Part shown: positions 18,343 through 60,095 of the stretch, piece by piece | How positions within the stretch are numbered: position 1 is the first letter of the stretch | How the letters are laid out: every line of letters starts with the position of its first letter | NCBI GenBank assembly: GCA_963823665.1 | Contig: CAWGMQ010000005.1 | Span: 480,001 to 544,000 of the forward strand | DNA from: an uncultured Planctomycetota bacterium | GTDB lineage: Bacteria; Planctomycetota; Planctomycetia; Isosphaerales; Isosphaeraceae | Direction: 5' to 3' | DNA length: 64,000 nt | The notes under the pieces: model-generated | Database searches by the model: none | Told to the model about the DNA's origin: nothing | What the model saw: only the letters and a program-made list of their open reading frames with translations | Position numbers and translations under genes: made by a program

Positions 18343-20776
18343 TCACGGCGACCGCGGCCCGTATTTCCGAAGAAACGCGACCGCGTTCGGCAACAGCCCC
18401 TGAACGCTGTCGAGTATCTCGCCTACCGAAACATCGGGTTGACTCGCGATCACCCCGCGCCGGCGCTCAAACTCCTGCTTCGCCATTTCACGTCGCCGCG
18501 CCCTTTCACGTCCCCGCCGCCGTCTCTCCCGCTTGGAAACCGGCTCCGGCGCCCGAGACGGCACAACACAACCCTCTTCGCCCAGAGACGCCGAAAGCTC
18601 ATCACCGCCGACGTCCTCCTGGCAGCCTGTCTCCCCCCCTCCGTGTCTCCCGGCCGCCAAAGGTTCGGTCTGCGCGTCGCCCGCTGCCTCGCCTGGTTCG
18701 TCGTCCACGATTTCGTTTTGTATATTCGTCGCGGGGTCTTTCTCTGTAAGGGTTAAGGAAACGAAATCGCCCAGCCCAACTTGTCCGGAATCCGTGGCCG
18801 CGTGCTCAATTTCCGCCTCCGTGTGGCCCTGGCCCCGCTGCGTGTGACCCTCAGTTCGGCGCGGGTCTCGGGCACCCGAAGGGTCGCCGCCGTCCCCCTC
18901 GGAAGTTTCAGTTCGGCGCGGGTCTCGGGCACCCGAAGGGTCGCCGCCGTCCCCCCGACCGAAGGTCTCCTTTCGCCCCCCGCCGTCCCCCTCGGAAGTT
19001 TCAGTTCGGCGCGGGTCTCGGGCACCCGAAGGGTCGACGCCGTCCCCCCTACCGCAGGTCTCCTCTTGCCCCCCACCGTCCCCGGGATCACTTCCCCCTG
19101 TCTCGCATGCACCCAAAACGTCCCCGCCAACCACGCGATCACCCGCACCTTCCACCACCCCGATGTCATTCGTCCCCAACCCGTCGATTTCGTTTTGTAT
19201 ATTCGTCTCAAGCTCTTGTCCCGTAAGGGTTAATGGAACGAAATCGCTCAGCCCAGCCTGTCCGAAATCCGTCGCCCCATCCTGGCTTTCCGCCCGGGTC
19301 AGGGCGTCCTGTTTCATCGCGCTGTCATCCGCCACCTCATCCACCCGATTGGTCGCCGACGCTTCCTGAACGCCACCATTCCCCGCCTCCGTCTCACACG
19401 CCCGACCGGCAATCGCTTCTGTATGTCCCTGGCTCTGCACGTGCGCAGCCTTCGCGCCCACATCACTCGGGCTGCCACCTGCGTAGCGCGCCACCACCGT
19501 CAGACGCACGCCAATACGGACTCTCACAAGGCTGCGGCCCGCGCTCCGCCTTCCAGCGAGCCAACCCCGCCTCGAGGTCGCCGTCATACCCCTGGGCATC
19601 GCGCACGGTCCCACGCTCGTCAAGCACAAACCGCTCATCGTGCATGATCCCGCGTCGTGCTAGCGCTTTCCTCCGTTCTCGGTCCCGGCGCACCTTCTCC
19701 CACCCGTCCTCGTCCCAGCGGTGCCATCTCTTGATCGTGTCGAGGTTCCGAATCACCAGCCGGTTGGAGCTCTCAAGATGACGCTCAATCTGCCCGACGT
19801 TCTTGACCTCCGCATCGCTCACAGTATTGGTTTCGACCATCTCGAGAATCTCGTCGCCTTCCGCGGCCTCGGCTTCGAGCCTCCACAGCCGCTCAATCGC
19901 CTGGTCGATGATCTCCAGCAGCACGGCCCGTCCAGCCGCTGCATTCGCCGGCGTGAGCGCGCGTAGCTCCGGGCGCGAGAGCTGGCCCTCATAAAACTTG
20001 ACCCGGTCATAGTGGATCTCGCACCGTAGCTCGCGGAAGGCGGACTTGAAGACCGGCCTCATGGCATGGCTCGCAAGGAACACCAAGGCGGCCTCTCGAT
20101 CAAAGAGCGCGTCGAGCGGCTGCTTGCCCAGTAAACGGGCGGCCGTGAGTTTTTGACAGGAGACCCATCCCTCTCCCGAATCAATCGGCTTCCTCACCTC
20201 GCCTAGGCGGTCCAGCAGCCAGCGTCGGCCGGCGCGCGTCGCTTCAAGCTGGATGACCAACCTGCGCGGCTTATCCGGGTCATCGGCTACCCCCGAATCG
20301 GAGGTCCGCGGCTGCTTGTGCTCATAGTCCCCCGATGGATAGAGCTGCGATGGTCCCCTGCGGTCAAAGAGCAAGCGGTCGCCCAGCCCCTCTGCCGCCA
20401 GTGTCTCCTCAGCCGCCTGCGCCCGCGATCGCCGCACGATATCGCCGGTCACGCGGTTAACTTCCAAGCGGTTAGCACGCTCGGCCCGCCAGCAAGCCAT
20501 CGCTGCCAGCTTGGCCAGATCTGCCTCGGCTTGATTTCGAACCTGATGACTCGTTGTGTACGCATCAATCTTCGCCTGAAGCTCCGCCGGATCCTCCCCC
20601 GGCAGAACCGGCGTCTTCGCCGTAAGTCCATGCTTGATTGCATTGAACCGCGAGCCATTTCCCGTACGAGCAACTGGACCGCCCGTTTCAACCGCCGCCG
20701 CAGCTTGCAAGTTCATAAGCTCACCATGACCATATCTTTGCGACAAAAGCCAGACAGTTTCCCCACAGTCCGTCAC
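18343..20776 (-). CDS. Planctomycete-type hypothetical protein (SRFNAIKHGL family) with repetitive C-terminus; frameshift near 19490
   Basis: SRFNAIKHGLTAKTPVLPGEDP N-terminal motif; continues in the 18343..19638 frame with QNEI and DPRRTE repeats. Confidence 0.65.
18708..19280. repeat. ~95-bp imperfect direct repeat pair (18708-18803, 19186-19280) flanking the short repeat array
   Basis: CGATTTCGTTTTGTATATTCGTC...GTAAGGGTTAA.G.AACGAAATCGC.CAGCCCA occurs twice. Confidence 0.85.
18851..19047. repeat. Three copies of a ~47-bp palindromic unit TCAGTTCGGCGCGGGTCTCGGGCACCCGAAGGGTCG(C/A)CGCCGTCCCC
   Basis: Copies at 18851, 18908 and 19001 (spacings 57 and 93, both in frame); internal CGGGT/ACCCG stem. 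Confidence 0.9.
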
Positions 20777-47116: not shown

Positions 47117-47489
47117 ATGTGGGAAGTAGCGACGACGGCCGAGTTCGACGACTGGTTCGCCGATCTGGGCGAAGACGCGCAGGTCGAACTCATCGCCAAG
47201 GTAGGGTTTGCTGAGGCTGTTGGGTCCGCAACTCGGGCGACCGCATGCGGACACGCTCAACGATTCAAAGCACTCCAACATGAAAGAACTTCGGGCGGAC
47301 ACGAGGGATCAGGTGTTGCGCGTCGCTTTCGCATTCGATCCCGATCGGTCGGCAATCTTGCTTCTGGGCGGCAACAAGTCCGGCGTCAGCCAGAAGCGCT
47401 TCTACAAGCAACTGATCGCCAGGGCGGACGCCCTATACGACGAGCACCTAAAGAAGATCGCCGCGCGAAAGAAAGGCAAGGGAAAGTAG
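47117..47489 (+). CDS. RelE/HigB-family toxin (frameshift ~47205)
   Basis: MWEVATTAEFDDWF + GPQLGRPHADTL..MKELR..LRVAFAFDP.R.AILLLGGNK. Confidence 0.88.
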
Positions 47490-47490
47490 C

Positions 47491-47829
47491 ATGGCTAAAT
47501 CATTCGACGAACTGGTCAAGCGCACGACTACGAAAAAGACGCGTGACCGTGCGGCTGCTCGCACGGGGGAGCTCCTGGACGAGTTGCTGCTCAGTGAAAT
47601 CCGTGAGCAGGCGGGCAAGAGCCAGCGGCAAGTCGCCGACGCGCTGGGCATCAAGCAACCGAGCCTGTCGAAGCTGGAGAAGCAATCCGACATGCAAATT
47701 TCGACCCTGCGCCGCATCGTGAACGCACTGGGCGGGGAGTTGGAAGTCTCCGCGAGGTTCCCCGTGGGAACCGTGAAGATCGAGCCGTTCAATCCCAGAT
47801 CTCCCGCAGCCGCTCGGCGTGCTCGTTGA
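47491..47829 (+). CDS. XRE-family HTH antitoxin
   Basis: SQRQVADALGIKQPSLSKLEKQSDMQISTLRRIVNALGG. Confidence 0.9.
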   Translation: MAKSFDELVKRTTTKKTRDRAAARTGELLDELLLSEIREQAGKSQRQVADALGIKQPSLSKLEKQSDMQISTLRRIVNALGGELEVSARFPVGTVKIEPFNPRSPAAARRAR

Positions 47830-48667
47830 AGCGGAACTTCTCCCGTTCCTTGCGGGGCTGCCGAACATCGCATACTCCCAGTCGAAGTACACTTTGAGGA
47901 ATTTGTTTAGATACCAGTTGAAGCCGACGTCGACCATCTGGGCTTCATTCGAGCAAATTGAGGCTGCCGAAGGATTCCTGGAATGAGAACTCGTATGAGA
48001 ATGGCCTGGTGAGGTGCCCGTAAAAGTAGACGCGGGTCCGAGGGCTCGTGATGCCGCTGCTGGCATAATCCTGATTCGGGTTTGCATAGATCCGCGCGTC
48101 GAGCTGCTGCATCGCACGGATGCCGAAGTTGAACTCGTCGTCGTCCGTACCCCACCGGAGCCCGTCGTTGGCGTAGTCGTAGTAGCCGCCCGCCAGCGAT
48201 AACTTGCCGAGTTGCCGATTTCCAATGACCTGGGCGCGCCCGGTCGTCGTCGGGTCGCCGCCGCCGGATGCCGACCCACCCCCGAGTGACGACGATATCG
48301 AGTACGATGTTCCGCCCCCGCCGACGAAGCCGCCGCCCTCGCCCACGTCGGGCCGCGGATCGATGGATGTAGGAGGGAACGGCTGACTCTGGTTCCGATT
48401 CGCAGACTTGAGCTCCTCGACCTCGTGTGAGAGCTCTGCGTTCTGCTTCGTCACCTCGTCGAGACGTTGCTCCATCCTCTGGAGGCGATCGAGCAGCTCT
48501 TGCTGGACATTCGAAGGAGAAACGGCTGTCGGTGGCAGGGCGTCAACCGGCGGAATGGGCGGCGATCCCCCCTGGCCCATGGCGCCACCGCACCAGCCAG
48601 CGAGCGTCCAGACCAGGGTCATCATCGAAAGCCAGCGAGACCTGCCGGAATCGATGATCCGAACCAT
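47830..48667 (-). pseudogene. Internally deleted OprO/OprP-like anion porin gene
   Basis: Signal peptide, coiled coil, RAMQQLDAR..RTRVYFYG..YEFSFQ, then jumps to the C-terminal strands VDVGFNWYLNKFLKVYFDWEYAMFG. Confidence 0.7.
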
Positions 48668-49023
48668 TGGGATTCCCACCTGTCCGACTTATCGCGGAGA
48701 GCCGCACCGATCGGGCCAGGTTCTGGATCGCAGGAGGACAAAGATCTGAATTATATCCCGGGTGGGAAACGGGCTGGGATGTGCGATCCTATTCGCCTGC
48801 GTGGATGTTACCATTTGCTCTGAAACGAGCGATTTGGCGCGGGACCGCGGCCGCGAATTGACACATCTTCGTTATCGTCGACCTTGCGCACTGCCTTCAG
48901 CAAAAAATGCCAGTCGTGACGATTTTTCCGGATGCCAGGGTCTCGCGGAACGTGCCTTCGGGGCGTTTGCGATTCCTCCCCTGCACTGAGCTGCCGGGCG
49001 ACCCCATTCGAGAACGTCGACCT

Positions 49024-50199
49024 TCAAGTCCCATCCTTGGACGCGATGAACACGTCGCGGCGGGGGAACCGCTCGAACTGCGAAGCCGGCCTACCGAAGT
49101 TGGTGGCGAGCACGTCGGGCGGATTGCCGGCGATCCATTCCGACAGATCGATCTCCTCGTAGACCCCGGAGTTGAACCCGATGAGGACGCGGCACTTCCC
49201 GTCGCCAACGTTTTCGATCGAGTGCCCGTACCCTTGCGGGGAGAAACCGACGTCACCCTTCTCGAACGTCTCCGTCCGGTAGCGCCCGCCCGACCCGAAC
49301 AGTGTCATGCTGACCTTACCCTCGAGGATGTACTGCCACTCGTCGGCGCTGGGGTGCCAGTGCAACTCCCTCAGCGCACCGGGCTCGAGTTCGAGGACCG
49401 CGCCTGCCATGGTCTTGGAGATGGGAAACTTGGTGGAATCGACCAGCCACAGCCGGCCTCCCTTGTTGTTGACGCGCGGGTCGTTGGCGAGGAGCTGCCA
49501 CTTGTGCGTCGATGGCGGCTGTTTCGGGCCCGCGAGCGGGTCAGCCGCCCGCTTGGGCGGCACCGTGCCCCGCGCGAAATACACCTCCTTCTTCGGGAAC
49601 CCATCGAAGGCCGATTCGGGGAGGCCGAAGTTCTTCGCCAACAGCGCGCTGGGAGCGTGGCCCATCCAGTCGGTGATGCTGAAAGTGCCGAACTCGGAGA
49701 AGTAGCCGTTGTCGAAGATCAGGACGAAGTGGCACGGCTCGTGGCCGAGGCACTCCAGCATGTGGCCGTGGCCGCGCGGGAAATACCACACGTCCCCCGG
49801 CTCGAAGTCATTCGTCTCCGTGTACCCCCCCGGGCCGAGGACGGTCGTCCGGACTCGTCCCTTGTCCACGAACGCCCACTCGGCTGCGGTGGCATGCCAG
49901 TGGAGCTCGCGCATGGCGCCCGGGGCCAGCGTCATCGAAACCCCGGCGATCCCCTTCGAGATCGGAAGCTGCTTGACCGTGGCCTCTCTGGCTTCGCTGC
50001 CGTCGCTGATCTTCCCTTTCGACTTCTCCAGCTCGAACTTGAATGTCGGCAGCTCTTCACCCGCGAGTAGCGGGTCCGGGACGTTGTTCATGAAGCTCGG
50101 ATCGCCGGCCTCGGCAGCCCTCGGGCTCGCCAGCGCCGCGGCAGCCGCGGCGCTGAGCCCCGCACCCGCCAGGAATTCACGCCTCTGCAACTTGGACAT
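49024..50199 (-). CDS. Oxalate decarboxylase-family Mn bicupin with Tat signal
   Basis: QRREFL Tat motif; two RELHWH..EW metal motifs; GDVWYFPRGHGH; lid segment FSEFGTF retains Glu. Confidence 0.9.
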   Translation of the reverse strand: MSKLQRREFLAGAGLSAAAAAALASPRAAEAGDPSFMNNVPDPLLAGEELPTFKFELEKSKGKISDGSEAREATVKQLPISKGIAGVSMTLAPGAMRELHWHATAAEWAFVDKGRVRTTVLGPGGYTETNDFEPGDVWYFPRGHGHMLECLGHEPCHFVLIFDNGYFSEFGTFSITDWMGHAPSALLAKNFGLPESAFDGFPKKEVYFARGTVPPKRAADPLAGPKQPPSTHKWQLLANDPRVNNKGGRLWLVDSTKFPISKTMAGAVLELEPGALRELHWHPSADEWQYILEGKVSMTLFGSGGRYRTETFEKGDVGFSPQGYGHSIENVGDGKCRVLIGFNSGVYEEIDLSEWIAGNPPDVLATNFGRPASQFERFPRRDVFIASKDGT

Positions 50200-50381
50200 G
50201 GGAAGTCTCCTTGGTTGATCCGTGTGTGGGATGGGCACGGAGAGACTGCGATCAAAAGCGCCCGCTAATCGAGGATGCGTCACCCGCATTCGGCCGCCTG
50301 GTCTGTCTCCAGACGCACGATGACTGGGGCCTCCGCTAGTTACCTGGACAAGGAGTATCACAAATAACGAGGGAGCGTCCT

Positions 50382-50397
50382 TGCAACACTTGTACCG
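50382..50397 (-). promoter_or_regulatory. Candidate sigma54 -24/-12 promoter for the bicupin gene
   Basis: Minus strand CGGTACAAGTGTTGCA (GG-N10-GC). Confidence 0.5.
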
Positions 50398-50468
50398 CGG
50401 AGGTCTTGCGGTGGCAAGGAGGGGAGTTACGCCGACCAGTTTCTCAGAGTTCGACGAAGCACGCGCAC

Positions 50469-50485
50469 TTGGCACGAGAAATGCC
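50469..50485 (+). promoter_or_regulatory. Candidate sigma54 -24/-12 promoter for the fdhD-FDH-cyd operon
   Basis: TTGGCACGAGAAATGCC (TGGCACG, GG-N10-GC) ~120 bp upstream of fdhD. Confidence 0.7.
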
Positions 50486-50605
50486 CTCTGCGCTCCCATC
50501 ACGATCCGCATCGTGATTGTCGAGCGGCCACTTGATCAGTCCGCACACCGACCATACGCTGATGAAGCACGTCGTCGTCGAGATCACAGCGTCGGGGGCG
50601 GAATC

Positions 50606-51466
50606 ATGATCAAGATCTGCCGCAGGACGGGCGTTGCGAGCGTCGAAGTGGGGCGAGTGACCGGATCGCTCTGCGTGCCCTCGTCCGACGAGCTCTCGGT
50701 GGAGGAACCGCTGGAGATCCGCCTGGCGGCTCAGCCCGCGGACGCCGCGCCGACCTCGGTCGCCGTGACGATGCGGACGCCAGGCGACGACGTGGACCTG
50801 GCGGCTGGCTTTCTCTTCACCGAGGGAATCATCGCCGGGGCCGCAGATATCGAGAGCATCAGGCGAGCCGGCGTGAACGCCGTGGAGGCGAAACTTCGGC
50901 CTGGCGTCGTCCTGGACGCGGCCAGACTCGACCGTCACTCGTTCGTCTCTTCGAGCTGTGGCGCGTGCGGCAAGCGGTCGATTGCCGCGGTTCGCGTGGC
51001 GAGCCGCCACCCGATCACCCCGGGATTGCCGCGCTTGTCGCCCGAGGTGATTCACGGCCTGCCGCGGGCGCTCCGAATTAGCCAGTCAGCGTTTGCACGG
51101 ACGGGCGGCATCCACGCCTCGGGCCTCTTCGATGCTGAGGGCCGTCTGCTCGTGCTCCGGGAGGACGTCGGCCGCCACAACGCCCTGGACAAGCTGATCG
51201 GCTCCGAGCTGCTCGCCGGGCGCATCCCGCTGACGGGCGGGATAGTCCTGGTCAGCGGCCGGGTGAGCTTCGAGCTGGTACAGAAGGCGGCGATCGCCGG
51301 CGTCCCGGTGCTCGGGGCCGTCGGGGCCCCGTCAAGTCTGGCGGTCGACCTGGCCCGCGAGTGCGGGATGACGCTGCTCGGCTTCGTCCGCGATGCGCGC
51401 TTCAACGTCTACTCCGATTCCGGCCGGATCGATCCGGCCTACAACCTGACCCATTCCGCGTCGTGA
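50606..51466 (+). CDS. fdhD: Formate dehydrogenase accessory sulfurtransferase
   Basis: EEPLEIR, MRTPG.D..LAAGFLFTEG, SSCGACG, TGGIH, REDVGRHNALDKLIG. Confidence 0.96.
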   Translation: MIKICRRTGVASVEVGRVTGSLCVPSSDELSVEEPLEIRLAAQPADAAPTSVAVTMRTPGDDVDLAAGFLFTEGIIAGAADIESIRRAGVNAVEAKLRPGVVLDAARLDRHSFVSSSCGACGKRSIAAVRVASRHPITPGLPRLSPEVIHGLPRALRISQSAFARTGGIHASGLFDAEGRLLVLREDVGRHNALDKLIGSELLAGRIPLTGGIVLVSGRVSFELVQKAAIAGVPVLGAVGAPSSLAVDLARECGMTLLGFVRDARFNVYSDSGRIDPAYNLTHSAS

Positions 51467-51473
51467 GGTAATC

Positions 51474-54400
51474 ATGTTCAAACTTCCTTTCGTGGCCCGC
51501 TCGCAACCGTCGCGACCCCAGAACCAGCCCCTCAGCCCCCGGACTGCGGAGAAGTCCTCGCGGCTGCGCGGCGCGACCGTCACGGACGGGCTCTGTCCCT
51601 ACTGTGCCGTTGGCTGCAGCCAGCTCCTCTACACCAAGGCCGGCCAGCTCATTGACATCGAAGGCGACCCGCGTAGCCCGATCAACGAAGGCACTCTCTG
51701 CCCAAAGGGCTCGAACGCGTTGCTCCTGGCCCTCAACCCGCATCGCATGAAATCCGTGCTCTATCGGGCTCCCTACTCCGACAAATGGGAGACCAAGACC
51801 CTCGACTGGGCGCTCGACCAGATCGCCCAGCGGGTCAAGGCGGCGAGAGATGCCGACTTCACGGTGCGCGATGAGGCAGGTCGCACGCTCAATTCGGTCA
51901 GGAACATGGGGTCGCTCGGCGGTGCAACGTTGAACGTCGAAGACAACTACCTGATCAAGAAGCTGTTCTGCGGCGGGCTGGGAGTGGTCTCGGTCGAGAA
52001 CCAGGCCCGAACTTGACACTCCGCCTCGGTGCCCGGTCTGGGCGCCTCGCTCGGCCGCGGTGCGGCCACCAATTATCAGCAGGATCTGCCGAACAGCGAT
52101 TGCATCCTGTTCATGGGCTCGAACATGGCAGAGGCCCACCCCGTCGGGTTCCGCTGGCCCATGAAGGCCAAGGAACACGGCGCCACGTTGATCCACGTCG
52201 ACCCGCACTTCTCGCGGACGTCGGCGCTCTGCGACCTGTACGTCCCGATCCGGGCCGGCTCCGACATCGCGTTCTTGGGCGGCATGATCAACTACGTCCT
52301 GACCCACGAGCGCTGGTTCAAGGAATACGTCCTCCATTACACCAACGCGGCGACGCTGATCCAGGAGGGCTTCCAGGACACCGAGGACCTGGGCGGTCTG
52401 TTCAGCGGTCTCGACCCGGAAACCGGCGTCTATGACCCGGTGGGCGGACACTGGGGCTACGAGGGCTCGCTTGGTGACCGCGGCAGGCGGGACGGCCGCG
52501 ACGAGGAGCCCGGTGCCGACCGGTCCGACTCCCCGGACATCTCGCCGGAGAACCGCAAGGGAATCCACGGCTACGCCATCGACGGCGGCGCCCAGCCGCA
52601 CGACGCATCGCGGTCGGAGCCGACATCCGAAGTCAACGGCCAGCCGCCACGCGACCCAACCCTGCAGCATCCCCGTTGCGTCTTCCAGATCCTGAAGCGC
52701 CATTTCTCCCGGTACACGCCGGAGATGGTCTCCCAGGTGTGCGGTTGCTCGCCGGAGCAGTTCACGCGCGTTGCCGAGCTTCTCTGCGCCAACTCGGGCC
52801 GCGAGCGGACGAGCGTCCTGGTCTACGCCCTGGGGTGGACGCAGCATGCCGCGGTGCGCAGATGATCCGAGCCGGGGGGATCTTGCAGCTCCTGCTCGGC
52901 AACATCGGCCGTCCGGGTGGCGGTATCCTGGCCATGCGAGGCCATTCCAGCATCCAGGGCTCGACGGACATCGGGACGTTGTATGACGTCCTGCCCGGCT
53001 ATCTGCCCCAGCCCGCGGCCAGCGGGGCCCATGACACGCTCGATTCCTACGTCGCGCGAAGCGGTATGGCCGCCGGCTACTGGTCCCACTTCCGCGATTA
53101 CATCGTCAGCCTGCTCAAGGCGTGGTACGGCGACGCCGCGCGACCCGAGAATGATTTCCGGTACAACTGGCTGCCCCGCATCGAGCGCGATCACTCGCAA
53201 TTGCCGACCTTCAACCGCATGGCCCAGGGCGAGCTGAAGGGCTACTTCCTCTTCGGCCAGAACCCCGGCGGCGGCGGACTGAATGCGGGACTTCACCGCG
53301 CCGGGCTGCGTAACCTGGACTGGCTCGTCGTGGCCGACTGGTTCGAGACCGAGAGCGCCACGTTCTGGAAGAACGACCCAGCCGCACCGCCGCCGTCCGA
53401 GATCAAGACCGAGGTCTTCGTCCTCCCGGCCGCGGCCAATCCGGAGACCGACGGCACGCTGACCAACACCCAGCGGCTGCTCCAGTGGCACACCAAGGCG
53501 ATCGACCCGCCCGGCGACTGCCGCTCCGATTCCTGGTTCGTATACAACCTCGGCAAGCGGCTCAAGCAGCTCTACGCCGGCTCGACCGATCCCAAGGATC
53601 AGCCCCTGCTGAACCTCACCTGGGACTACGACTACGAGGAACAACCGCGGCTCCCCGACGGCTCGATCAGTCGCATCGCGGGTGATGCCGACGCCGAAAA
53701 AATCCTGATGGAGATGAACGGCTACAAGCTCGACGAAATCGACCCACGCACCGGCCGGCCGCGCCTGCTGAAAGGCTTCTCGGAACTTCAGGGCGACGGC
53801 ACCACCGCATGCGGCATCTGGATCTACAGCGGCGTCTTCCCCGAGCCGGGTCGCAACCGGGCGCGGCAGCGCAAGCGATCCGACAACCCGCTCGAGCCGG
53901 ACTGGGGATTCGCCTGGCCCGATAACCGCCGCGTGCTCTTCAACCGCGCGTCGGCCGATCCCGAGGGCCGGCCCTGGTCCCAGCGGAAGAAGCTCGTTTG
54001 GTGGGATGCCGAGAAGAGTCTCTGGGTGGGCCTCGACCGGCCGGATTTCGAGCCGAGCAAGCCGCCCGACTATCGCCCGTCGGCCGGCGCGACCGGCATG
54101 GCGGCCATCGCCGGCGACAATCCGTTCATCATGAAGCCCGACGGCGTCGCCTGGCTCTTCGCCCCAACCGGCGTCAAGGACGGCCCCCTGCCGACGCACT
54201 ACGAGCCCATCGAGTCGCCGGTCAGCAACCTGCTCTATCCCAATCACATGTGTACGCCGGGAGTGCGCCTCTTCCCGGGACCTCGCAATCGTCTGGCACA
54301 TACGCCCGAGACCGAGTTCCCCGTCGTGGCCACCACCTACCGGCTCACCGAGCACTACCTGAGCGGGCCGATGAGCCGGTTCAATTCCTGGCTCAACGAA

Positions 54401-54823
54401 TTGCAGCCCGAGATGTTCATCGAGATGAGCCCGGAGCTGGCCGCCGAGCGCGGGATCATCCACGGCGGCTGGGTGACGGTCACCACGGCGCGGGGCCGCA
54501 TCGACGTGCGCACGATGGTGACCAGGAGGATGCGACCGCTCGTCGTGAGCGGACGAGTGGTCCATCAGGTCGGCCTCCCGTTCCATTGGGGGTTCGCCGG
54601 ACAGGTCGTCGGAGGCAATGCCAACGACCTGACCTCCCTGGTCTGCGAGCAGAACACGAGCATGCACGAGGGAAAGTCTTTTGCCTGCCAGGTCGAGCCT
54701 GGAAGGCGCAACGGGCACACTTTGAAACCGACCGTGTCATTCGTGACCTGGCCCAACCGCAAACCCATACCCGATACGCCCGCCTCGGCCCAGCCGGAAG
54801 GGATATTCACCCATGGGCATTAG
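51474..54823 (+). CDS. Selenocysteine-containing formate dehydrogenase alpha subunit (FdnG/FdoG-like, Mo/W-bis-PGD); Sec TGA at 52014; frameshift ~52852
   Basis: CPYCAVGC..C 4Fe-4S; ENQART-U-HSASV in frame; GSNMAEAHP, MRGHSSIQG, TTYRLTEH, LPFHWG. Confidence 0.92.
52014..52050 (+). promoter_or_regulatory. UGA-Sec codon with bacterial SECIS hairpin
   Basis: TGA + 11 nt, then GGTGCCC-GGTCT-GGGCGCC stem-loop; GGUCU loop resembles E. coli fdhF SECIS. Confidence 0.85.
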
Positions 54824-54834
54824 AGGAGCTCGAG

Positions 54835-55851
54835 CTGGCGGATCTGCCACAGACCGGCGACCCGCCCATCGGGCCGCTCGCTGCGATCATCAATCGCCTC
54901 ACCTGGCCGTTCCGCTACGGTCATGTTGAGCCCCAGCCGTCCACCGGCTTCTACACGGATACCACCGTCTGCATCGGCTGCAAGGCGTGCGAGGTCGCCT
55001 GCAAACAATGGAATCAGCTCGCCGCCGACGGGCTCGAGTGGACGGGCAACAGCTACGACAACACGGCTGAACTCTCGGCGACATCCTGGCGGCATGTCAA
55101 ATTCATCGAGCAGTTCGCCGCGAATCGACGGCCCTCAGGCCAACATGCAGCCGATCCGGCGGCAACGAGCCACGAACTGACACTTGACCATTTGCTGAAC
55201 GGGGGTGGGCCGAGTCGGTGTGGGGAGTTTCCCGCGGCAACGAGCCACGAACTGACCCTTGACCAGTTGCTGAATGGCGGCGGGGCCGGTCGGTGGTTGA
55301 TGATGAGCGACGTCTGCAAGCACTGCGTCGCCGCCCCTTGCCAGCACGCGTGCCCCACGGGCGCCATCATCTATAACGAGTTCGCGAACGTCTACATCCA
55401 GCGCGACATCTGCAATGGCTGCTCGTATTGCATCGCGGCCTGCCCGTTCGGGGTCATCACGCGCAGCGATTTCGATGGCCATTCGCACAAATGCACGCTC
55501 TGCTACGACCGCCAGAAGGACGGCCTCGTCCCGGCCTGTGCCAAGGCCTGCCCGACCGCGTCGATTCAGTTCGGCCCGATCGACGAGCTCCGCGAGCGGG
55601 CACGGAACCGGGTCCAGGAGCTTCACGCTCAGGGCGTCACGGGAGCATACCTTTACGGCGAACAGCCCACCGAGACCTATAGCGATCTCCATTCGTTCTA
55701 CCTGCTCGTCGATCGTCCGGCCGTCTACGGACTCCCGGATGCGCCCTTCAACCCGTGGCTCCACATGCTCGCAGATTACGGCAGGACCCTCGCCAGCGCG
55801 CTGGCCACGGTCGCCGTGATTCTCGCATTGCTATTGCTCCAGGAGGCATGA
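54835..55851 (+). CDS. Formate dehydrogenase Fe-S (beta) subunit with C-terminal TM helix
   Basis: CIGCKACEVACK, CKHC..APC..ACP, CNGCSYCIAACP, KCTLC..PACAKACP; start uncertain (CTG after GAGGAG, or ATG 54813 with an indel). Confidence 0.9.
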   Translation: MADLPQTGDPPIGPLAAIINRLTWPFRYGHVEPQPSTGFYTDTTVCIGCKACEVACKQWNQLAADGLEWTGNSYDNTAELSATSWRHVKFIEQFAANRRPSGQHAADPAATSHELTLDHLLNGGGPSRCGEFPAATSHELTLDQLLNGGGAGRWLMMSDVCKHCVAAPCQHACPTGAIIYNEFANVYIQRDICNGCSYCIAACPFGVITRSDFDGHSHKCTLCYDRQKDGLVPACAKACPTASIQFGPIDELRERARNRVQELHAQGVTGAYLYGEQPTETYSDLHSFYLLVDRPAVYGLPDAPFNPWLHMLADYGRTLASALATVAVILALLLLQEA

Positions 55852-55852
55852 C

Positions 55853-56774
55853 GTGGGGGAGAACGACAGGGCGCAGGCGATCGAGCCCGGCTATCTGTCC
55901 CAGGACGTGACCAAGGTCCCGGGCTGGCACGGGCTCGTCGCCTGGGACTTGCTCTTCAATAACCTGACGACCGGGCTTTTCCTGTTCGCCGCGGTCACCG
56001 AGCTGGCCGCGCCTGCGCTATTCGGCCCCGTGGCCAGAGTGGCGTATCCAGTCGCGCTGGTCTTCCTGCTCACCGACCTGGTGATGCTGGTGGCCGACCT
56101 GGGCGATCCACTCCGCTTTCATCACATGCTCCGGGTGTTCAAGCCCACCTCGCCCATGTCACTGGGCACATGGAGCCTCACCATCTATTCACTGCCGCTG
56201 ACCTTGATCGTGGCGGTCGAAGCGGCGCAAGTGCTCCACCTGCTGCCGAGCGAGTCGACGGCGCTGGAATGGGTTCGCAAGGCGGCGGTGGTCTTCGGTC
56301 TCCTGCCGGCCTTCGGCTCCGTGGCGTACAAGGGAGTGCTCTTCAGCACGTGCTCGCAGCCCGGCTGGAAGGATGCCCGCTGGCTGGGCGGTTTCATGGC
56401 TAATTCCGCACTCATGTTGGGTAGCGCCCAGTTGCTCGCCATCTCGGTGCTGACGGGAGACGCGCGGGCCGCCGCCGCTCTGAGCACCATCGTCGCGGTG
56501 CTCGCCGTACTCAGCCTGATCCCGACCGGTTTCGTCTTCCTGGAAATTCGCGAGACCCTCGCGCGAATTTACAGCGACCAGCAGATTTACCGTGCCCTTT
56601 CGCTCACCTTGGTCGCAGGTACGCTGGTGCCGGTGATCCTCCTGCTCGCCGGAGATGGCGCTCCTTGCGCTGGGCGCGGTGTTGCTCATTGTACTCGGTG
56701 CCTTCGCTGTTCGTTCGCTGTTTCTCAAGATACCGCACGCTTCTCACGAGAGTCGATCGAGGGACAAGGCCTGA
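55853..56774 (+). CDS. NrfD/PsrC-family membrane anchor (frameshift ~56650)
   Basis: DLGDPLRFHHML..KPTSPMSLGTW, YKGVLF..QPGW; last TM helix and TGA (56772) lie in the adjacent frame. Confidence 0.82.
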
Positions 56775-56881
56775 TTCCGGATGCGGAACCTCGAAATGGG
56801 GAACCTGCATTCTCTTCGTGGCCGCCACAACTAGAAGAGTTCGATGATGCAAAGCGGATGGATCGCTGGGGAGGGCACGTC

Positions 56882-58207
56882 ATGACCGATGCAGTGCTAT
56901 GGCATCGCATCCAGTTTGCCTTTACGATTACTTATCATTATCTGTTCCCCCAATTGACGATGGGGCTGGCCCTGCTCATCGTGGTATTCAAGTCGCTCGC
57001 CCTGTGGCTTCGCAACGAGTCGTACAACGAGGTTGCCCGCTTCTGGGCGCGGATCTTCGCCGTCAACTTCGCCATGGGCGTGGTGACCGGAATCCCGATG
57101 GAATTCCAGTTCGGCACCAACTGGGCGGCGTTCTCCCGTTTCTCTGGCGCAGTAGTCGGCCAGGCCCTGGCGATCGAGGGTCTCTTCGCGTTCTTCCTCG
57201 AGTCCGCGTTCCTGGGGCTGTTCCTCTTCGGCGAAAAGCGGCTCGGCTCGAGGGGGCATCTCGCGACAGCCGTCGCCTTGACCCTGGGCTCCTGGATGTC
57301 GGGCTACTTCATCATCGTCGCCAACGCCTTCATGCAGCACCCGGTCGGCTACCGGCTGGGAGAGGACGGAGTGCTCCATCTCGAGAGTTTCCGGGCCTAC
57401 ATCCTCAACCCCTGGGCGCTCTGGCAGTATGCCCACAACATGCTGGCCTCGGTCGTCACGGCGTCGTTCGTCGTGGCCGCCGTGGGAGCCTACTGGTCGC
57501 TCTTGGGCCAGCACACGCGCCACGCCGGGATCTGCCTGCGCGTGGGAGTGATCGCCGGGCTCGTCTCGAGCCAGCTCGTCGCCTTCCCGGCCGGTGACGG
57601 CGCCGGCAAGATGGTGGCAAAGCATCAGCCGGTCACGCTCGCGGCAATGGAGGGGCTGTTCGAAGGCGGACCGTACGCCGAGCTCGCCATCATCGGCCAG
57701 CCCGACGTCGCCGCCCGCAAGCTGGAGAACCCGATCGTCGTTCCCTGGATCCTCAGTTTCCTCTGCTACGGGTCGTTCGGAAGCACCGTCCACGGGTTGA
57801 ACGACTTCCCGCAGGACCAGTGGCCGCAGAACATCGAGTTGCTTTACTACAGTTATCACATCATGGCAGGGCTCGGGACGCTCTTCATCCTGACGATGGG
57901 AGTCGCAACGTTGCTCCTGTGGCGTGGGCGGTTGGCGACGACGCGCCCGATGCTCTGGGTGCTGATGCTGGCGTTTCCGTTCCCCTACATCGCGACGACC
58001 GCCGGCTGGTGGACCGCCGAGCTGGGCCGCCAGCCATGGGTGATCTACGGCCTCATGCGCACGGCCGACGCCCACTCGAAACTGGTCAATCCAGGCGACG
58101 TTGTCTTCACGGTGCTGGGCTTCGCCGGCCTTTACTTGCTCCTTGGCATGCTCTTCGTCATCCAGGTCCTCAAAGAGATCAACCGCGGTCCGGCCGCGTC
58201 GCATTAG
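56882..58207 (+). CDS. cydA: Cytochrome bd oxidase subunit I (short Q-loop)
   Basis: RIQFAFTITYHYLF, GIPMEFQFGTNW, ANAFMQHP, LAAMEG, YHIM, AELGRQPW; own RBS. Confidence 0.96.
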   Translation: MTDAVLWHRIQFAFTITYHYLFPQLTMGLALLIVVFKSLALWLRNESYNEVARFWARIFAVNFAMGVVTGIPMEFQFGTNWAAFSRFSGAVVGQALAIEGLFAFFLESAFLGLFLFGEKRLGSRGHLATAVALTLGSWMSGYFIIVANAFMQHPVGYRLGEDGVLHLESFRAYILNPWALWQYAHNMLASVVTASFVVAAVGAYWSLLGQHTRHAGICLRVGVIAGLVSSQLVAFPAGDGAGKMVAKHQPVTLAAMEGLFEGGPYAELAIIGQPDVAARKLENPIVVPWILSFLCYGSFGSTVHGLNDFPQDQWPQNIELLYYSYHIMAGLGTLFILTMGVATLLLWRGRLATTRPMLWVLMLAFPFPYIATTAGWWTAELGRQPWVIYGLMRTADAHSKLVNPGDVVFTVLGFAGLYLLLGMLFVIQVLKEINRGPAASH

Positions 58208-58217
58208 GACACCGACC

Positions 58218-59306
58218 ATGGAAGCAGCCTGGTTCGTGATCATCTCGGGTATGCTCGCGGCTTATGCGGTGCTCGACGGCTTCGACTTCGGCGTCGGCGC
58301 CATCCACCGAATCGTCGCCCGCACCGATCTTGAGCGGCGGACCGTGCTGGCGGCGATCGGCCCGATCTGGGACGGCAACGAGGTCTGGCTGATCGCGGCC
58401 GGCGGCGCGTTGTTCGTGGCCTTCCCGAATGTCTACGCAACCGCGTTCAGCGGCTTCTACATGGCCCTTTTCGTCGTACTCTGGCTGCTGATCCTGCGTG
58501 GCATGGCGATCGAGCTCCGCTCGCACCAGGACCATCCCCTCTGGCGGGAATTTTGGGATTCGGTCTTCATGTTCGCGTCGGGGCTGCTTGCCGTGGTGTT
58601 CGGCACGACCCTCGGCAACCTGATTCGCGGAGTTCCGCTCGGAAAAGACGGGCTGCGGGGTATGCCGCTATTTACGAACTTCCTGATCGGCGGCCAGCCG
58701 GGAATCCTCGACTGGTACACCGCGCTCGTTGGCCTGTTCACGCTCGTGGCTCTGGCAGTCCACGGCGCCTTCTACCTTGCATGGAGAACCACCGGGCCCG
58801 TGCGGGACCGCAGCCTGGCGTTCGCGCGCCAGGCGTGGAAGATCGCGCTCGTCCTGTGGGTGGCCGCCACGGCCGCGACCCTATGGGTGCGGCCCGAAGT
58901 CTTCTCGGGCCTCGCCTCACGTCCCTGGGCGTTCCCATTCGTCGGCATCGCAATCGCCGGGGCCTGGGGTGCTTTCCGGTTTCCGCGACTCGGCCAAGAC
59001 CTCGCGGCATTCCTCTCGTCGTCCGCGTTCCTGCTCGGCATGCTGGCCGCGACACTCGCGGGCCAATACCCGTACTGGCTGCGGTCGACCCTCGACCCGT
59101 CCTACAGTCTCACCGCCTTGAACTCGGCCTCCGACCACTACGGGCTGCGCGTAGCCCTGACCTGGTGGCCCGTCGGGATCGCGCTGGTCGCCGTCTATTT
59201 CACGTTCCTGTTTCGCTGGATACGGGGTAAGGTCAACGTGGAAGCTGAGCCGTCGCACGGGTCAGCCGTCGCCGGAGCGGTACATCCGACCGAAGAACGG
59301 ATCTGA
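58218..59306 (+). CDS. cydB: Cytochrome bd oxidase subunit II
   Basis: YAVLDGFDFGVG, IGPIWDGNEVWL. Confidence 0.96.
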   Translation: MEAAWFVIISGMLAAYAVLDGFDFGVGAIHRIVARTDLERRTVLAAIGPIWDGNEVWLIAAGGALFVAFPNVYATAFSGFYMALFVVLWLLILRGMAIELRSHQDHPLWREFWDSVFMFASGLLAVVFGTTLGNLIRGVPLGKDGLRGMPLFTNFLIGGQPGILDWYTALVGLFTLVALAVHGAFYLAWRTTGPVRDRSLAFARQAWKIALVLWVAATAATLWVRPEVFSGLASRPWAFPFVGIAIAGAWGAFRFPRLGQDLAAFLSSSAFLLGMLAATLAGQYPYWLRSTLDPSYSLTALNSASDHYGLRVALTWWPVGIALVAVYFTFLFRWIRGKVNVEAEPSHGSAVAGAVHPTEERI

Positions 59307-59341: not shown

Positions 59342-60095
59342 GTGTTTGACGCGTTTGAGTTGCGACCTCGATCCGGACCAGATCCGAAACATCGACTGGA
59401 TGCCAGCAAGATCGTCGAAACGGCGAAGAACCTCGCCGATGACATTAACACTCGGCTGCCGGGGAGCAGCCTGGCCGGGCTCGCTGAGGAGCTGACCAGG
59501 GTCGCGGTCGCGACTCGTACGCGAGGACGGCACGCGCGCCGGCCAATCCTGGCCATCAGGGCGGTCTCCGCCCTGGCGATCGGCCTGGCCCTCGTGGGGC
59601 TCTGGTATCTCGCCTGGCATCTCCACGCGAGGTGGGACTTCGGCAGCACGATCGGCGAGCTCTTCGGGGCGATCACCGCCGGGTTCAACCTCCTGGTCCT
59701 CCTCGCCGGCGCCCTGTGGTTCTGCGTGACCCTCGAGGCCCGGTTCAAGCGCAAGGAGGCTCTGGGGTACATCCAGGAGCTGCGCGAGTTCGCTCACGTC
59801 ATCGACGTGACCCAGCTCTACTACACCCCGAACCTGTACCAATCTCGCCAGGGGACCGCGCCCGGCAAGACGGCCATCGACGAGACCTACCTGCTCTACT
59901 GCACGCAGATGCTCGGCGTGATCAGCAACCTCGCGCCCCTCTACTCGCGTGGGGCGACCGGCGACTCGATCCTGCGCGGCATCGGAAGTCCAAATGCTCG
60001 CGATGGCCATTGCCACCAAGCATCTGGCCAAGGCCGAGGCCGCACGCAGGATGAGCGAGGAACTCCCAGGGTCGGGCCCGGAACCGGGCGGATGA
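59342..60095 (+). CDS. Hypothetical 2-TM membrane protein (frameshift ~59978)
   Basis: LEARFKRKEAL..LREFAHVIDVTQL, YLLYCTQML; continues as EVQMLAMAIATKHLAKAE to TGA 60093. Confidence 0.6.

Follow-up and report, generated by a model that had tools for sequence, protein, structure and literature searches.

Oxalate decarboxylase beside a selenocysteine formate dehydrogenase and cytochrome bd in an uncultured planctomycete: a candidate facultative respiratory module

This report concerns a gene cluster of an uncultured planctomycete (Isosphaeraceae) on a stretch of 64,000 nucleotides (the window; assembly GCA_963823665.1, contig CAWGMQ010000005.1, positions 480,001 to 544,000). In this cluster oxdC, for a bicupin oxalate decarboxylase with a twin-arginine translocation (Tat) type signal, lies head-to-head with an operon for a formate dehydrogenase (FDH) of the FqoABC type and for cytochrome bd (cydAB). 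The genes are real and the parts known; their wiring is undescribed and optional. From sequence comparisons, the cluster is read as a facultative module that would pass electrons from oxalate through formate to O2, giving proton-motive force and acid relief and no cell carbon; we put the probability of this reading at about 0.6. More tentatively, planctomycetes of soil and peat, with scattered other bacteria, may run an oxalate respiration independent of coenzyme A (CoA), with FqoABC as an inverted, cytoplasm-facing selenoenzyme. That periplasmic OxdC would, in such respiration, feed formate to any FDH at hand, and then to cytochrome bd, is proposed with somewhat less than even confidence.

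The locus and its enzymes

The genome measures 16.5 Mb in 12 contigs (92% complete; window contig, 1.97 Mb); genes at the locus were called by Pfam and NCBIfam profile matches. Every gene named here by an earlier sequence-only reading was recovered in place, by profile and coordinates; its "tightly packed operon" stands as to gene order (fdhD-fdhA-fdhB-nrfD-cydA-cydB) and is loosened by a 107-bp gap between nrfD and cydA. Features are listed below in window positions; L numbers are locus identifiers.

47853-48679, reverse strand: porin remnant, porin O/P family (PF07396 in intact homologues); about 265 internal codons deleted, plus a frameshift
49024-50199, reverse strand: oxdC, bicupin oxalate decarboxylase, MncA-like, Tat-type signal (TIGR03404)
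50383-50397, reverse strand: sigma-54-type -24/-12 box preceding oxdC; 8 of 10 consensus positions; present in L007 too
50422-50455, no strand: junction of the oxdC-porin block and the FDH block, from DNA identity to relatives
50470-50484, forward strand: sigma-54-type -24/-12 box preceding fdhD; 9 of 10 positions; position shared with L115, L116, L121 and L128
50606-51466, forward strand: fdhD, FDH sulfurtransferase (Pfam/NCBIfam)
51474-54823, forward strand: fdhA (FqoA, NF041513 type), molybdenum/tungsten FDH alpha subunit; selenocysteine (Sec) TGA at 52014-52016
52028-52046, forward strand: predicted hairpin 3' of the TGA, resembling a selenocysteine insertion sequence
54813-55851, forward strand: fdhB (FqoB), iron-sulfur subunit with a C-terminal membrane helix
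55853-56774, forward strand: nrfD-like anchor gene (FqoC); 8 helices, PsrC fold, inverted topology predicted
56882-58207, forward strand: cydA, cytochrome bd subunit I; short Q-loop, Thr at the Lys252 position
58218-59306, forward strand: cydB (Pfam/NCBIfam)
59342-60060, forward strand: orfX, membrane protein of about 240 residues (end approximate; frameshifted near 60000)

OxdC matches TIGR03404 at 348 bits (cut-off 254.2) and carries both RELHWH sites; a twin-arginine motif, a hydrophobic stretch and an AxA site are read straight from the sequence of its N-terminus, and the Tat-signal bicupin with two Mn sites of the sequence-only reading is thus borne out. Among 139 distinct oxdC loci (the 80 nearest GTDB matches together with loci from stretches of the class and the family, after removal of 12 duplicates), 123 show a simple twin-arginine pattern. 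The best solved match is MncA (2VQA, E 3e-93), followed by Bacillus subtilis OxdC (1J58); the Mn ligands (His/His/Glu/His, two sites), Arg92, Trp132, Arg270 and the lid Glu162 are all aligned to both. The lid, SEFGT in 135 of the 139 loci and SENST in B. subtilis, predicts decarboxylase chemistry for the window protein; the Glu333 position holds Ile here and Val in MncA. Passages of the cited papers describe MncA as a Tat-exported oxalate decarboxylase (PMC11742986), report that lid replacement including Glu162 makes OxdC an oxidase, with an optimum near pH 4 given there (PMC6850040), and call the loss of Glu333 common outside Terrabacteria (PMC10192776). This oxdC clade is represented in 77 of the 121 genomes of the family and in 53 of 201 from the class; the closest relatives of the window gene are from Planctomycetota, and a plasmid search matched 8 records, all below 60% identity. 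Two further bicupin genes lie elsewhere in this genome (G000): a copy at G000:C8:139545-140334 (L003/L004) with about 125 residues deleted, and an intact one, 41% identical, at G000:C4:1350747-1351784 (L002).

The earlier call of a selenocysteine FDH likewise holds: all 18 alpha genes retain the in-frame TGA, 15 of them with a predicted hairpin after it, and the genome has selA, selB and tRNA-Sec. The FDH is bracketed by selA and selB, the former at G000:C5:470408, about 10 kb short of the window, the latter at C5:568623, about 25 kb beyond it. The alpha subunit is best matched by NF041513, with which the window copy was compared only fragment by fragment; the intact, about 90% identical homologues of L115 and L116 score 1417 and 1411 (cut-off 1400, TGA read as U). 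The beta subunit is FdnH-like, and the three-subunit layout is that of the uncharacterised FqoABC, as outlined in sections of Calisto and Pereira (PMC8076601). For the anchor, a predicted model of the L116 protein (predicted local distance difference test, pLDDT, 82.5) has PsrC as its best match (2VPW_C, E 1.3e-4); an alignment of 20 rows shows no variation at the Asp and Ser of the quinone site or at the Arg of helix 8. fdhB contains a tandem duplication of about 25 codons at 55160-55290 (ATSHELTLD..LNGGG twice).

No twin-arginine motif was found in 18 alpha or 8 beta N-termini; with no Tat signal on alpha, and NrfD instead of a cytochrome b gamma subunit as anchor, the enzyme is not of the periplasmic FdnGHI type. 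Membrane proteins can be oriented by their Lys and Arg residues under the positive-inside rule. In 12 of 12 FqoC homologues the side with the termini and the quinone-side loop carries 13-18 such residues, versus 3-6 on the opposite side; the E. coli NrfD control gives 5 versus 12 (own helix calls) and 6 versus 8 (transferred helix calls). Because Tat signals are lacking and the charge bias is inverted, the anchor is probably inverted and the FDH probably faces the cytoplasm, judged from 12 related sequences and one control; formate would then have to cross the membrane. The comparison suggests that FqoC-type anchors (window, L114-L133) define a class of cytoplasm-facing formate:quinone oxidoreductases. 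In the relevant passages of PMC8076601 only SoeC is named as inverted, and part of PMC13332983 argues that an R. equi homologue is Tat-exported although SignalP found no signal.

CydA, aligned to E. coli bd-I and bd-II, has the haem ligands His19, His186 and Met393, and also Glu445 and Glu257. The position of Lys252, given as a quinol-site feature in a section of bioRxiv 10.1101/2021.01.16.426971, is occupied by Thr in all 24 close rows, among them the second, unlinked copy in this genome; all 5 distant rows keep the Lys. orfX, a candidate carrier or accessory subunit, matched no family in Pfam, NCBIfam or Atlas. Genes of its kind follow cydB, oxdC or YdeP genes in several genomes (window, L043, L053, L146, L147, L151).

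In the proposed chain, oxalate would enter the periplasm through a porin (deleted in the window; intact copies near 11 of the 139 oxdC loci), and Tat-exported Mn-OxdC would convert oxalate + H+ to formate + CO2, the established chemistry of its family. At low pH, formate would probably pass the inner membrane in the form of formic acid; Sec-FqoABC, by its predicted topology, would oxidise it on the cytoplasmic face and reduce quinone; and cytochrome bd, whose quinol oxidation is established, would reoxidise the quinol, with perhaps about 2 charges per oxalate and consumption of cytoplasmic protons. The balance per oxalate dianion would be C2O4(2-) + 2 H+ + 1/2 O2 -> 2 CO2 + H2O. A cytoplasmic FDH fits the removal of formic acid released by periplasmic OxdC at low pH; without oxdC, the FDH-bd operon would also serve as a general formate sink. 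In favour of such a chain, passages of PMC10308882 describe, for P. putida, induction by formate of FdhF/YdeP genes, fdhD and the bd-type cioAB. The route had been called distinct from Frc/Oxc oxalotrophy, and this is upheld: no oxc, frc or oxlT was found above its family cut-off in the 92%-complete genome (divergent thiamine diphosphate enzymes could escape). Neither a formate channel (FNT) nor fhs for formate assimilation was found there, and with these absences the route would yield energy and detoxification, not carbon.

Linkage of oxdC, formate dehydrogenase and cytochrome bd

The link between oxdC and FDH is real and is a minority state. An FDH-family gene lies within 9.3 kb at 20 of the 139 oxdC loci, where about 0.3 would be expected from family gene density and 1.5 on a generous count; the expectation treats kin as independent, and P values overstate. 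Three to four unrelated FDH types are involved, in shuffled order and scattered over the oxdC tree: FdhF/YdeP (TIGR01701) at 9 loci, an FdhF of about 980 residues (TIGR01591) at 6 and Fqo/FdnG at 5, the 20 including L081 (Tat-type FdnG) and L058 (below the FDH cut-off). Other neighbours are a di-haem peroxidase (CCP) at 15 loci, fdhD at 12, porin at 11, cyd genes at 7 and Dps at 6. A FastTree phylogeny with 139 rows requires 17 changes to account for its 21 linked tips, and well-supported branches force 12 of these (L242, too short, was dropped; gain cannot be told from loss); oxdC may have been placed many times beside one or another FDH, or FDH may have been lost repeatedly.

Complete sets of oxdC, FDH and cydAB within about 10 kb occur at L013, L041, L053, L071, L149, L248 and L249; at L008 cydB is only partial. 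The same Fqo type with complete cydAB stands beside oxdC only at L071, in the same-strand run oxdC-CCP-cydA-cydB-fdhD-fdhA-fdhB-nrfD. Other same-strand runs are YdeP-cydA-cydB-oxdC (L053) and YdeP-fdhD-cydA-cydB-oxdC (L149). With the selection reversed, to FDH, a distant oxdC (36-47%) was found at 5 of 78 metagenome YdeP loci, L249 and L314 (below) among them. Of 12 family genomes with a YdeP gene of one subclade (at least 66% identity; query genome left out), 4 have oxdC no more than 5 kb away and another 2 no more than 22 kb away. No FDH was found near a distant (38-42%) bicupin paralogue at any of 11 loci.

Several arrangements were seen beside oxdC in addition. L249:9974-17120 (metagenome contig, one strand) reads YdeP-cydA-cydB-oxdC-DUF1275, with no twin-arginine motif at the called oxdC start. 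L314:6185-11212 (one strand, divergent LysR gene) reads oxdC-Nramp-formate/nitrite channel-YdeP and would, from its gene content, be a compact operon for turning oxalate into CO2, with genes to supply Mn and to transport formate. A di-haem gene of the CCP/MauG family, below the MauG/MbnH cut-offs, directly abuts oxdC in many loci (L050:8764-9921, L071:9300-10382), and its product may remove H2O2 from an oxidase side reaction. Sulfite-oxidase-family molybdoenzymes (SorA-like, below cut-off) adjoin oxdC at L008:8911-10005, L047:7673-8782 and L202.

In close kin the conserved unit is fdhD-fdhABC-cydAB, with cydAB after nrfD in 14 of 20 stretches around related Fqo genes. Because the operon stands without oxdC in the nearest relatives, it is not dedicated to oxalate. 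L119 has fragments of oxdC and peroxidase genes 3' of cydB. By coordinates inspected by eye, and with many contigs short, oxdC and an Fqo-type FDH stand 20 kb or less apart in no other genome of the family. The exact arrangement of oxdC with FDH-NrfD-cydAB, offered earlier for a conservation check, is accordingly not shared by the nearest relatives, one 616-nt contig (below) excepted.

Contrary evidence and rival explanations

A number of observations weigh against the oxalate-to-O2 module. No FDH lies nearby at 119 of the 139 oxdC loci (about 85%); in a class sample of about 200 genomes, 59 oxdC loci have FDH at only 5 (two from one genus), cydAB at 4 and both at 2. Among close kin, no intact oxdC was found near 20 related Fqo operons, nor any oxdC in 8 further upstream stretches, and the three closest oxdC orthologues (88-91%) lack FDH and cyd genes within 10 kb. 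As neighbours of oxdC, peroxidase, Dps and efflux genes are as frequent as FDH. In a catalase control (coordinates only, with fdhD as FDH marker, which misses FDHs without adjacent fdhD, e.g. L053), 4 of the 34 genomes that have oxdC and fdhD carry them no more than 10 kb apart, against 0 of 35 for catalase and fdhD (Fisher p=0.054); two of the four share a genus, two catalase-fdhD pairs lie at 18-30 kb, and the contrast is borderline. No formate carrier was found in the genome; the porin beside oxdC lacks residues of about 238-505 of its intact L007 homologue; and the promoter spacer looks shortened. In B. subtilis, according to a section of PMC2788229, acid induces oxdC and FDHs through different signals.

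Two claims of the sequence-only reading therefore survive in part. Synteny does place oxdC repeatedly beside different FDHs, sometimes with cydAB, as a minority state that is absent in the nearest relatives. The complete CoA-independent chain from oxalate to O2 draws support from the FDH/cydAB linkage and the decarboxylase lid, and is weakened by an operon not dedicated to oxalate and by the missing formate channel.

The most serious alternative, which we consider unlikely, is a stress or low-oxygen island. In it fdhD-fdhABC-cydAB would detoxify formate from other sources and support microaerobic respiration, and oxdC, peroxidase, Dps and efflux genes would gather under a shared sigma-54 regulator without metabolic coupling. 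Such an island would account for the conservation of the FDH-bd operon without oxdC in close kin, for neighbour counts of CCP, porin and Dps comparable to that of FDH, and for a catalase control that is not clearly different. It is also favoured by one family of two-component sigma-54 activators (62-70% identical), which adjoins oxdC in 11 loci and fdhD in L116. It sits poorly with the many FDH partners that stand next to oxdC, on its strand and 80-600 bp away (L035, L057, L058, L070), with the lack of glutamate decarboxylase, kdp or similar acid genes among the recurrent neighbours scanned, with the absence of FDH at the 11 loci of the distant paralogue, and with L314, where a formate channel and a Mn transporter lie between oxdC and FDH.

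As to promoters, 12 of 21 segments upstream of FDH operons hold a sigma-54-type box of at least 8 of 10 positions; on the reverse strand the figure is 3 of 21. A sigma-54 promoter as a general feature of oxdC was dismissed, since only 9 of 138 loci have a box of at least 9 of 10 upstream of the gene (reverse strand, 3; inside the gene, 0). Scans for sigma-70 promoters and terminators found none. The recurring activator is accompanied by a DUF4118-PAS hybrid kinase (L036, L037, L062, L116 and others); the copy in this genome is on a different contig and has no genes of the module around it.

Decay of the window locus is a considerably less probable explanation: a deletion would have left two sigma-54 promoters about 60 bp apart with enhancers lost and the porin deleted; expression of the genes may be poor, or the genes themselves defective. 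The porin deletion, the spacer, three frameshifts and the internal deletion in the second oxdC copy speak for it. The decayed anion porin of the sequence-only reading is indeed present, its internal deletion and frameshift being evident against the intact homologue, and the deletion looks genuine, unlike a homopolymer error. The frameshifts in fdhA (about 52852), fdhB (about 54825) and nrfD (about 56666) are another matter. Contigs of relatives from short reads (four soil runs) have added bases at 52852/52855 and 56666/56669 and one base fewer at 54825, and the housekeeping gene lysC in the same window has two frameshifts too; for these reasons the three are most likely errors of long-read assembly, and true pseudogenes of fdhA and fdhB are unlikely. 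A single open reading frame joining NrfD and CydA (55853-58207) was rejected as a frameshift artefact. Also against decay, the reading frames of oxdC, fdhD, cydA and cydB are unbroken and the genome has the Sec machinery.

The locus is composed of two DNA blocks, oxdC-porin (90-92% identical to L006/L007) and FDH (85-89% to L114-L131), which meet at the junction and each bring a sigma-54-type box of their own. One 616-nt contig (depth 4.7) from an independent soil run, X4, joins a relative's oxdC leader to the start of fdhD, and the head-to-head layout is on that account probably no assembly artefact. The spacer between the matched ends is 348 letters in the X4 contig versus 137 in the window; on this single contig, the layout probably exists in a relative and the window spacer has probably been shortened.

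That the bicupin is mainly an oxalate oxidase (H2O2), or acts on another substrate, with di-haem peroxidase, Dps and bd as peroxide defence, is very improbable. In its favour, no other single family adjoins oxdC directly as often as the CCP/MauG type does (15 of 139), Glu333 is replaced, and the lid differs from SENST. Against it, Glu162, whose replacement switches specificity to oxidase (passages of PMC6850040), is kept, MncA also lacks Glu333, a loss common outside Terrabacteria (PMC10192776, likewise in part), and the FDH linkage points to formate.

Known systems and meaning

The window OxdC resembles MncA (Sll1358, Synechocystis PCC 6803) and B. subtilis OxdC as a two-Mn bicupin with Glu162, Arg92, Arg270 and Trp132, and resembles MncA in its predicted Tat export; it differs in the lid SEFGT and in its genomic link to a respiratory FDH and bd, unreported for either in the portions of the literature consulted. 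The FDH shares with FqoABC (portions of PMC8076601) and the actinobacterial-type FDH of NF041513 an FdnG-like alpha subunit, an FdnH-like beta subunit with C-tail, and an 8-helix NrfD anchor with quinone-site Asp and Ser and helix-8 Arg. Unlike the FqoABC described, it is planctomycete, in one operon with cydAB, without a Tat signal and with inverted charge bias.

The FDH of the fungal oxalate route is NAD-linked. That route is likewise CoA-independent from oxalate through formate to CO2, and co-location and co-expression of oxalate decarboxylase and FDH are described for fungi in part of PMC13409138; the window system is instead bacterial, split across the inner membrane, and uses a quinone-linked Mo/Sec FDH and bd. 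Frc/Oxc/OxlT oxalotrophy (Oxalobacter, Burkholderia, Cupriavidus) also takes oxalate to formate + CO2 and can yield proton-motive force; the window route differs in having no CoA step or antiport, and no fhs for formate assimilation was found in the genome. The P. putida formate response and E. coli YdeP acid resistance similarly combine an FDH-family Mo enzyme, fdhD and a bd-type oxidase (passages of PMC10308882); here the genes are clustered in one operon, and some genomes add a formate source, oxdC.

A section of PMC10192776 presents the bacterial OxdC route as a single step with formate as its end product. The word stem Planctomycet- is absent from the text seen of that paper and of PMC13409138, and the oxalotrophy papers searched make no mention of planctomycetes. 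In the literature searched, which includes few subscription journals and no supplements, no description of a bacterial oxdC-FDH-bd cluster was found, in agreement with the earlier statement that the module is not known to have been described in planctomycetes.

Soil oxalate turnover is usually scored with oxc and frc. If formate derived from OxdC is respired, abundant soil bacteria would form an oxalate sink not yet counted, with maintenance energy and pH relief as their gain, and an abundant phylum missed by oxc/frc marker surveys would join the oxalate-carbonate pathway; the YdeP and Fqo families would gain a physiological source of substrate. The locus also predicts an FqoABC that faces the cytoplasm and a CydA clade that works with Thr for Lys252. 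Cultured carriers are Singulisphaera acidiphila DSM 18658 (L035), in which 82 bp separate oxdC from a gene of the YdeP type, Singulisphaera sp. PoT (L053) and Schlesneria sp. T3-172 (L070).

Elsewhere in the window, positions 47117-47829 hold a probable toxin-antitoxin pair, an HTH_3 antitoxin gene (Pfam) after a frameshifted small gene; the latter has no Pfam match and presumably resembles a RelE/HigB-type toxin. Positions 18346-20776 contain repetitive open reading frames without Pfam match and with internal DNA repeats, of which a similar copy is present in L327, just upstream of the window.

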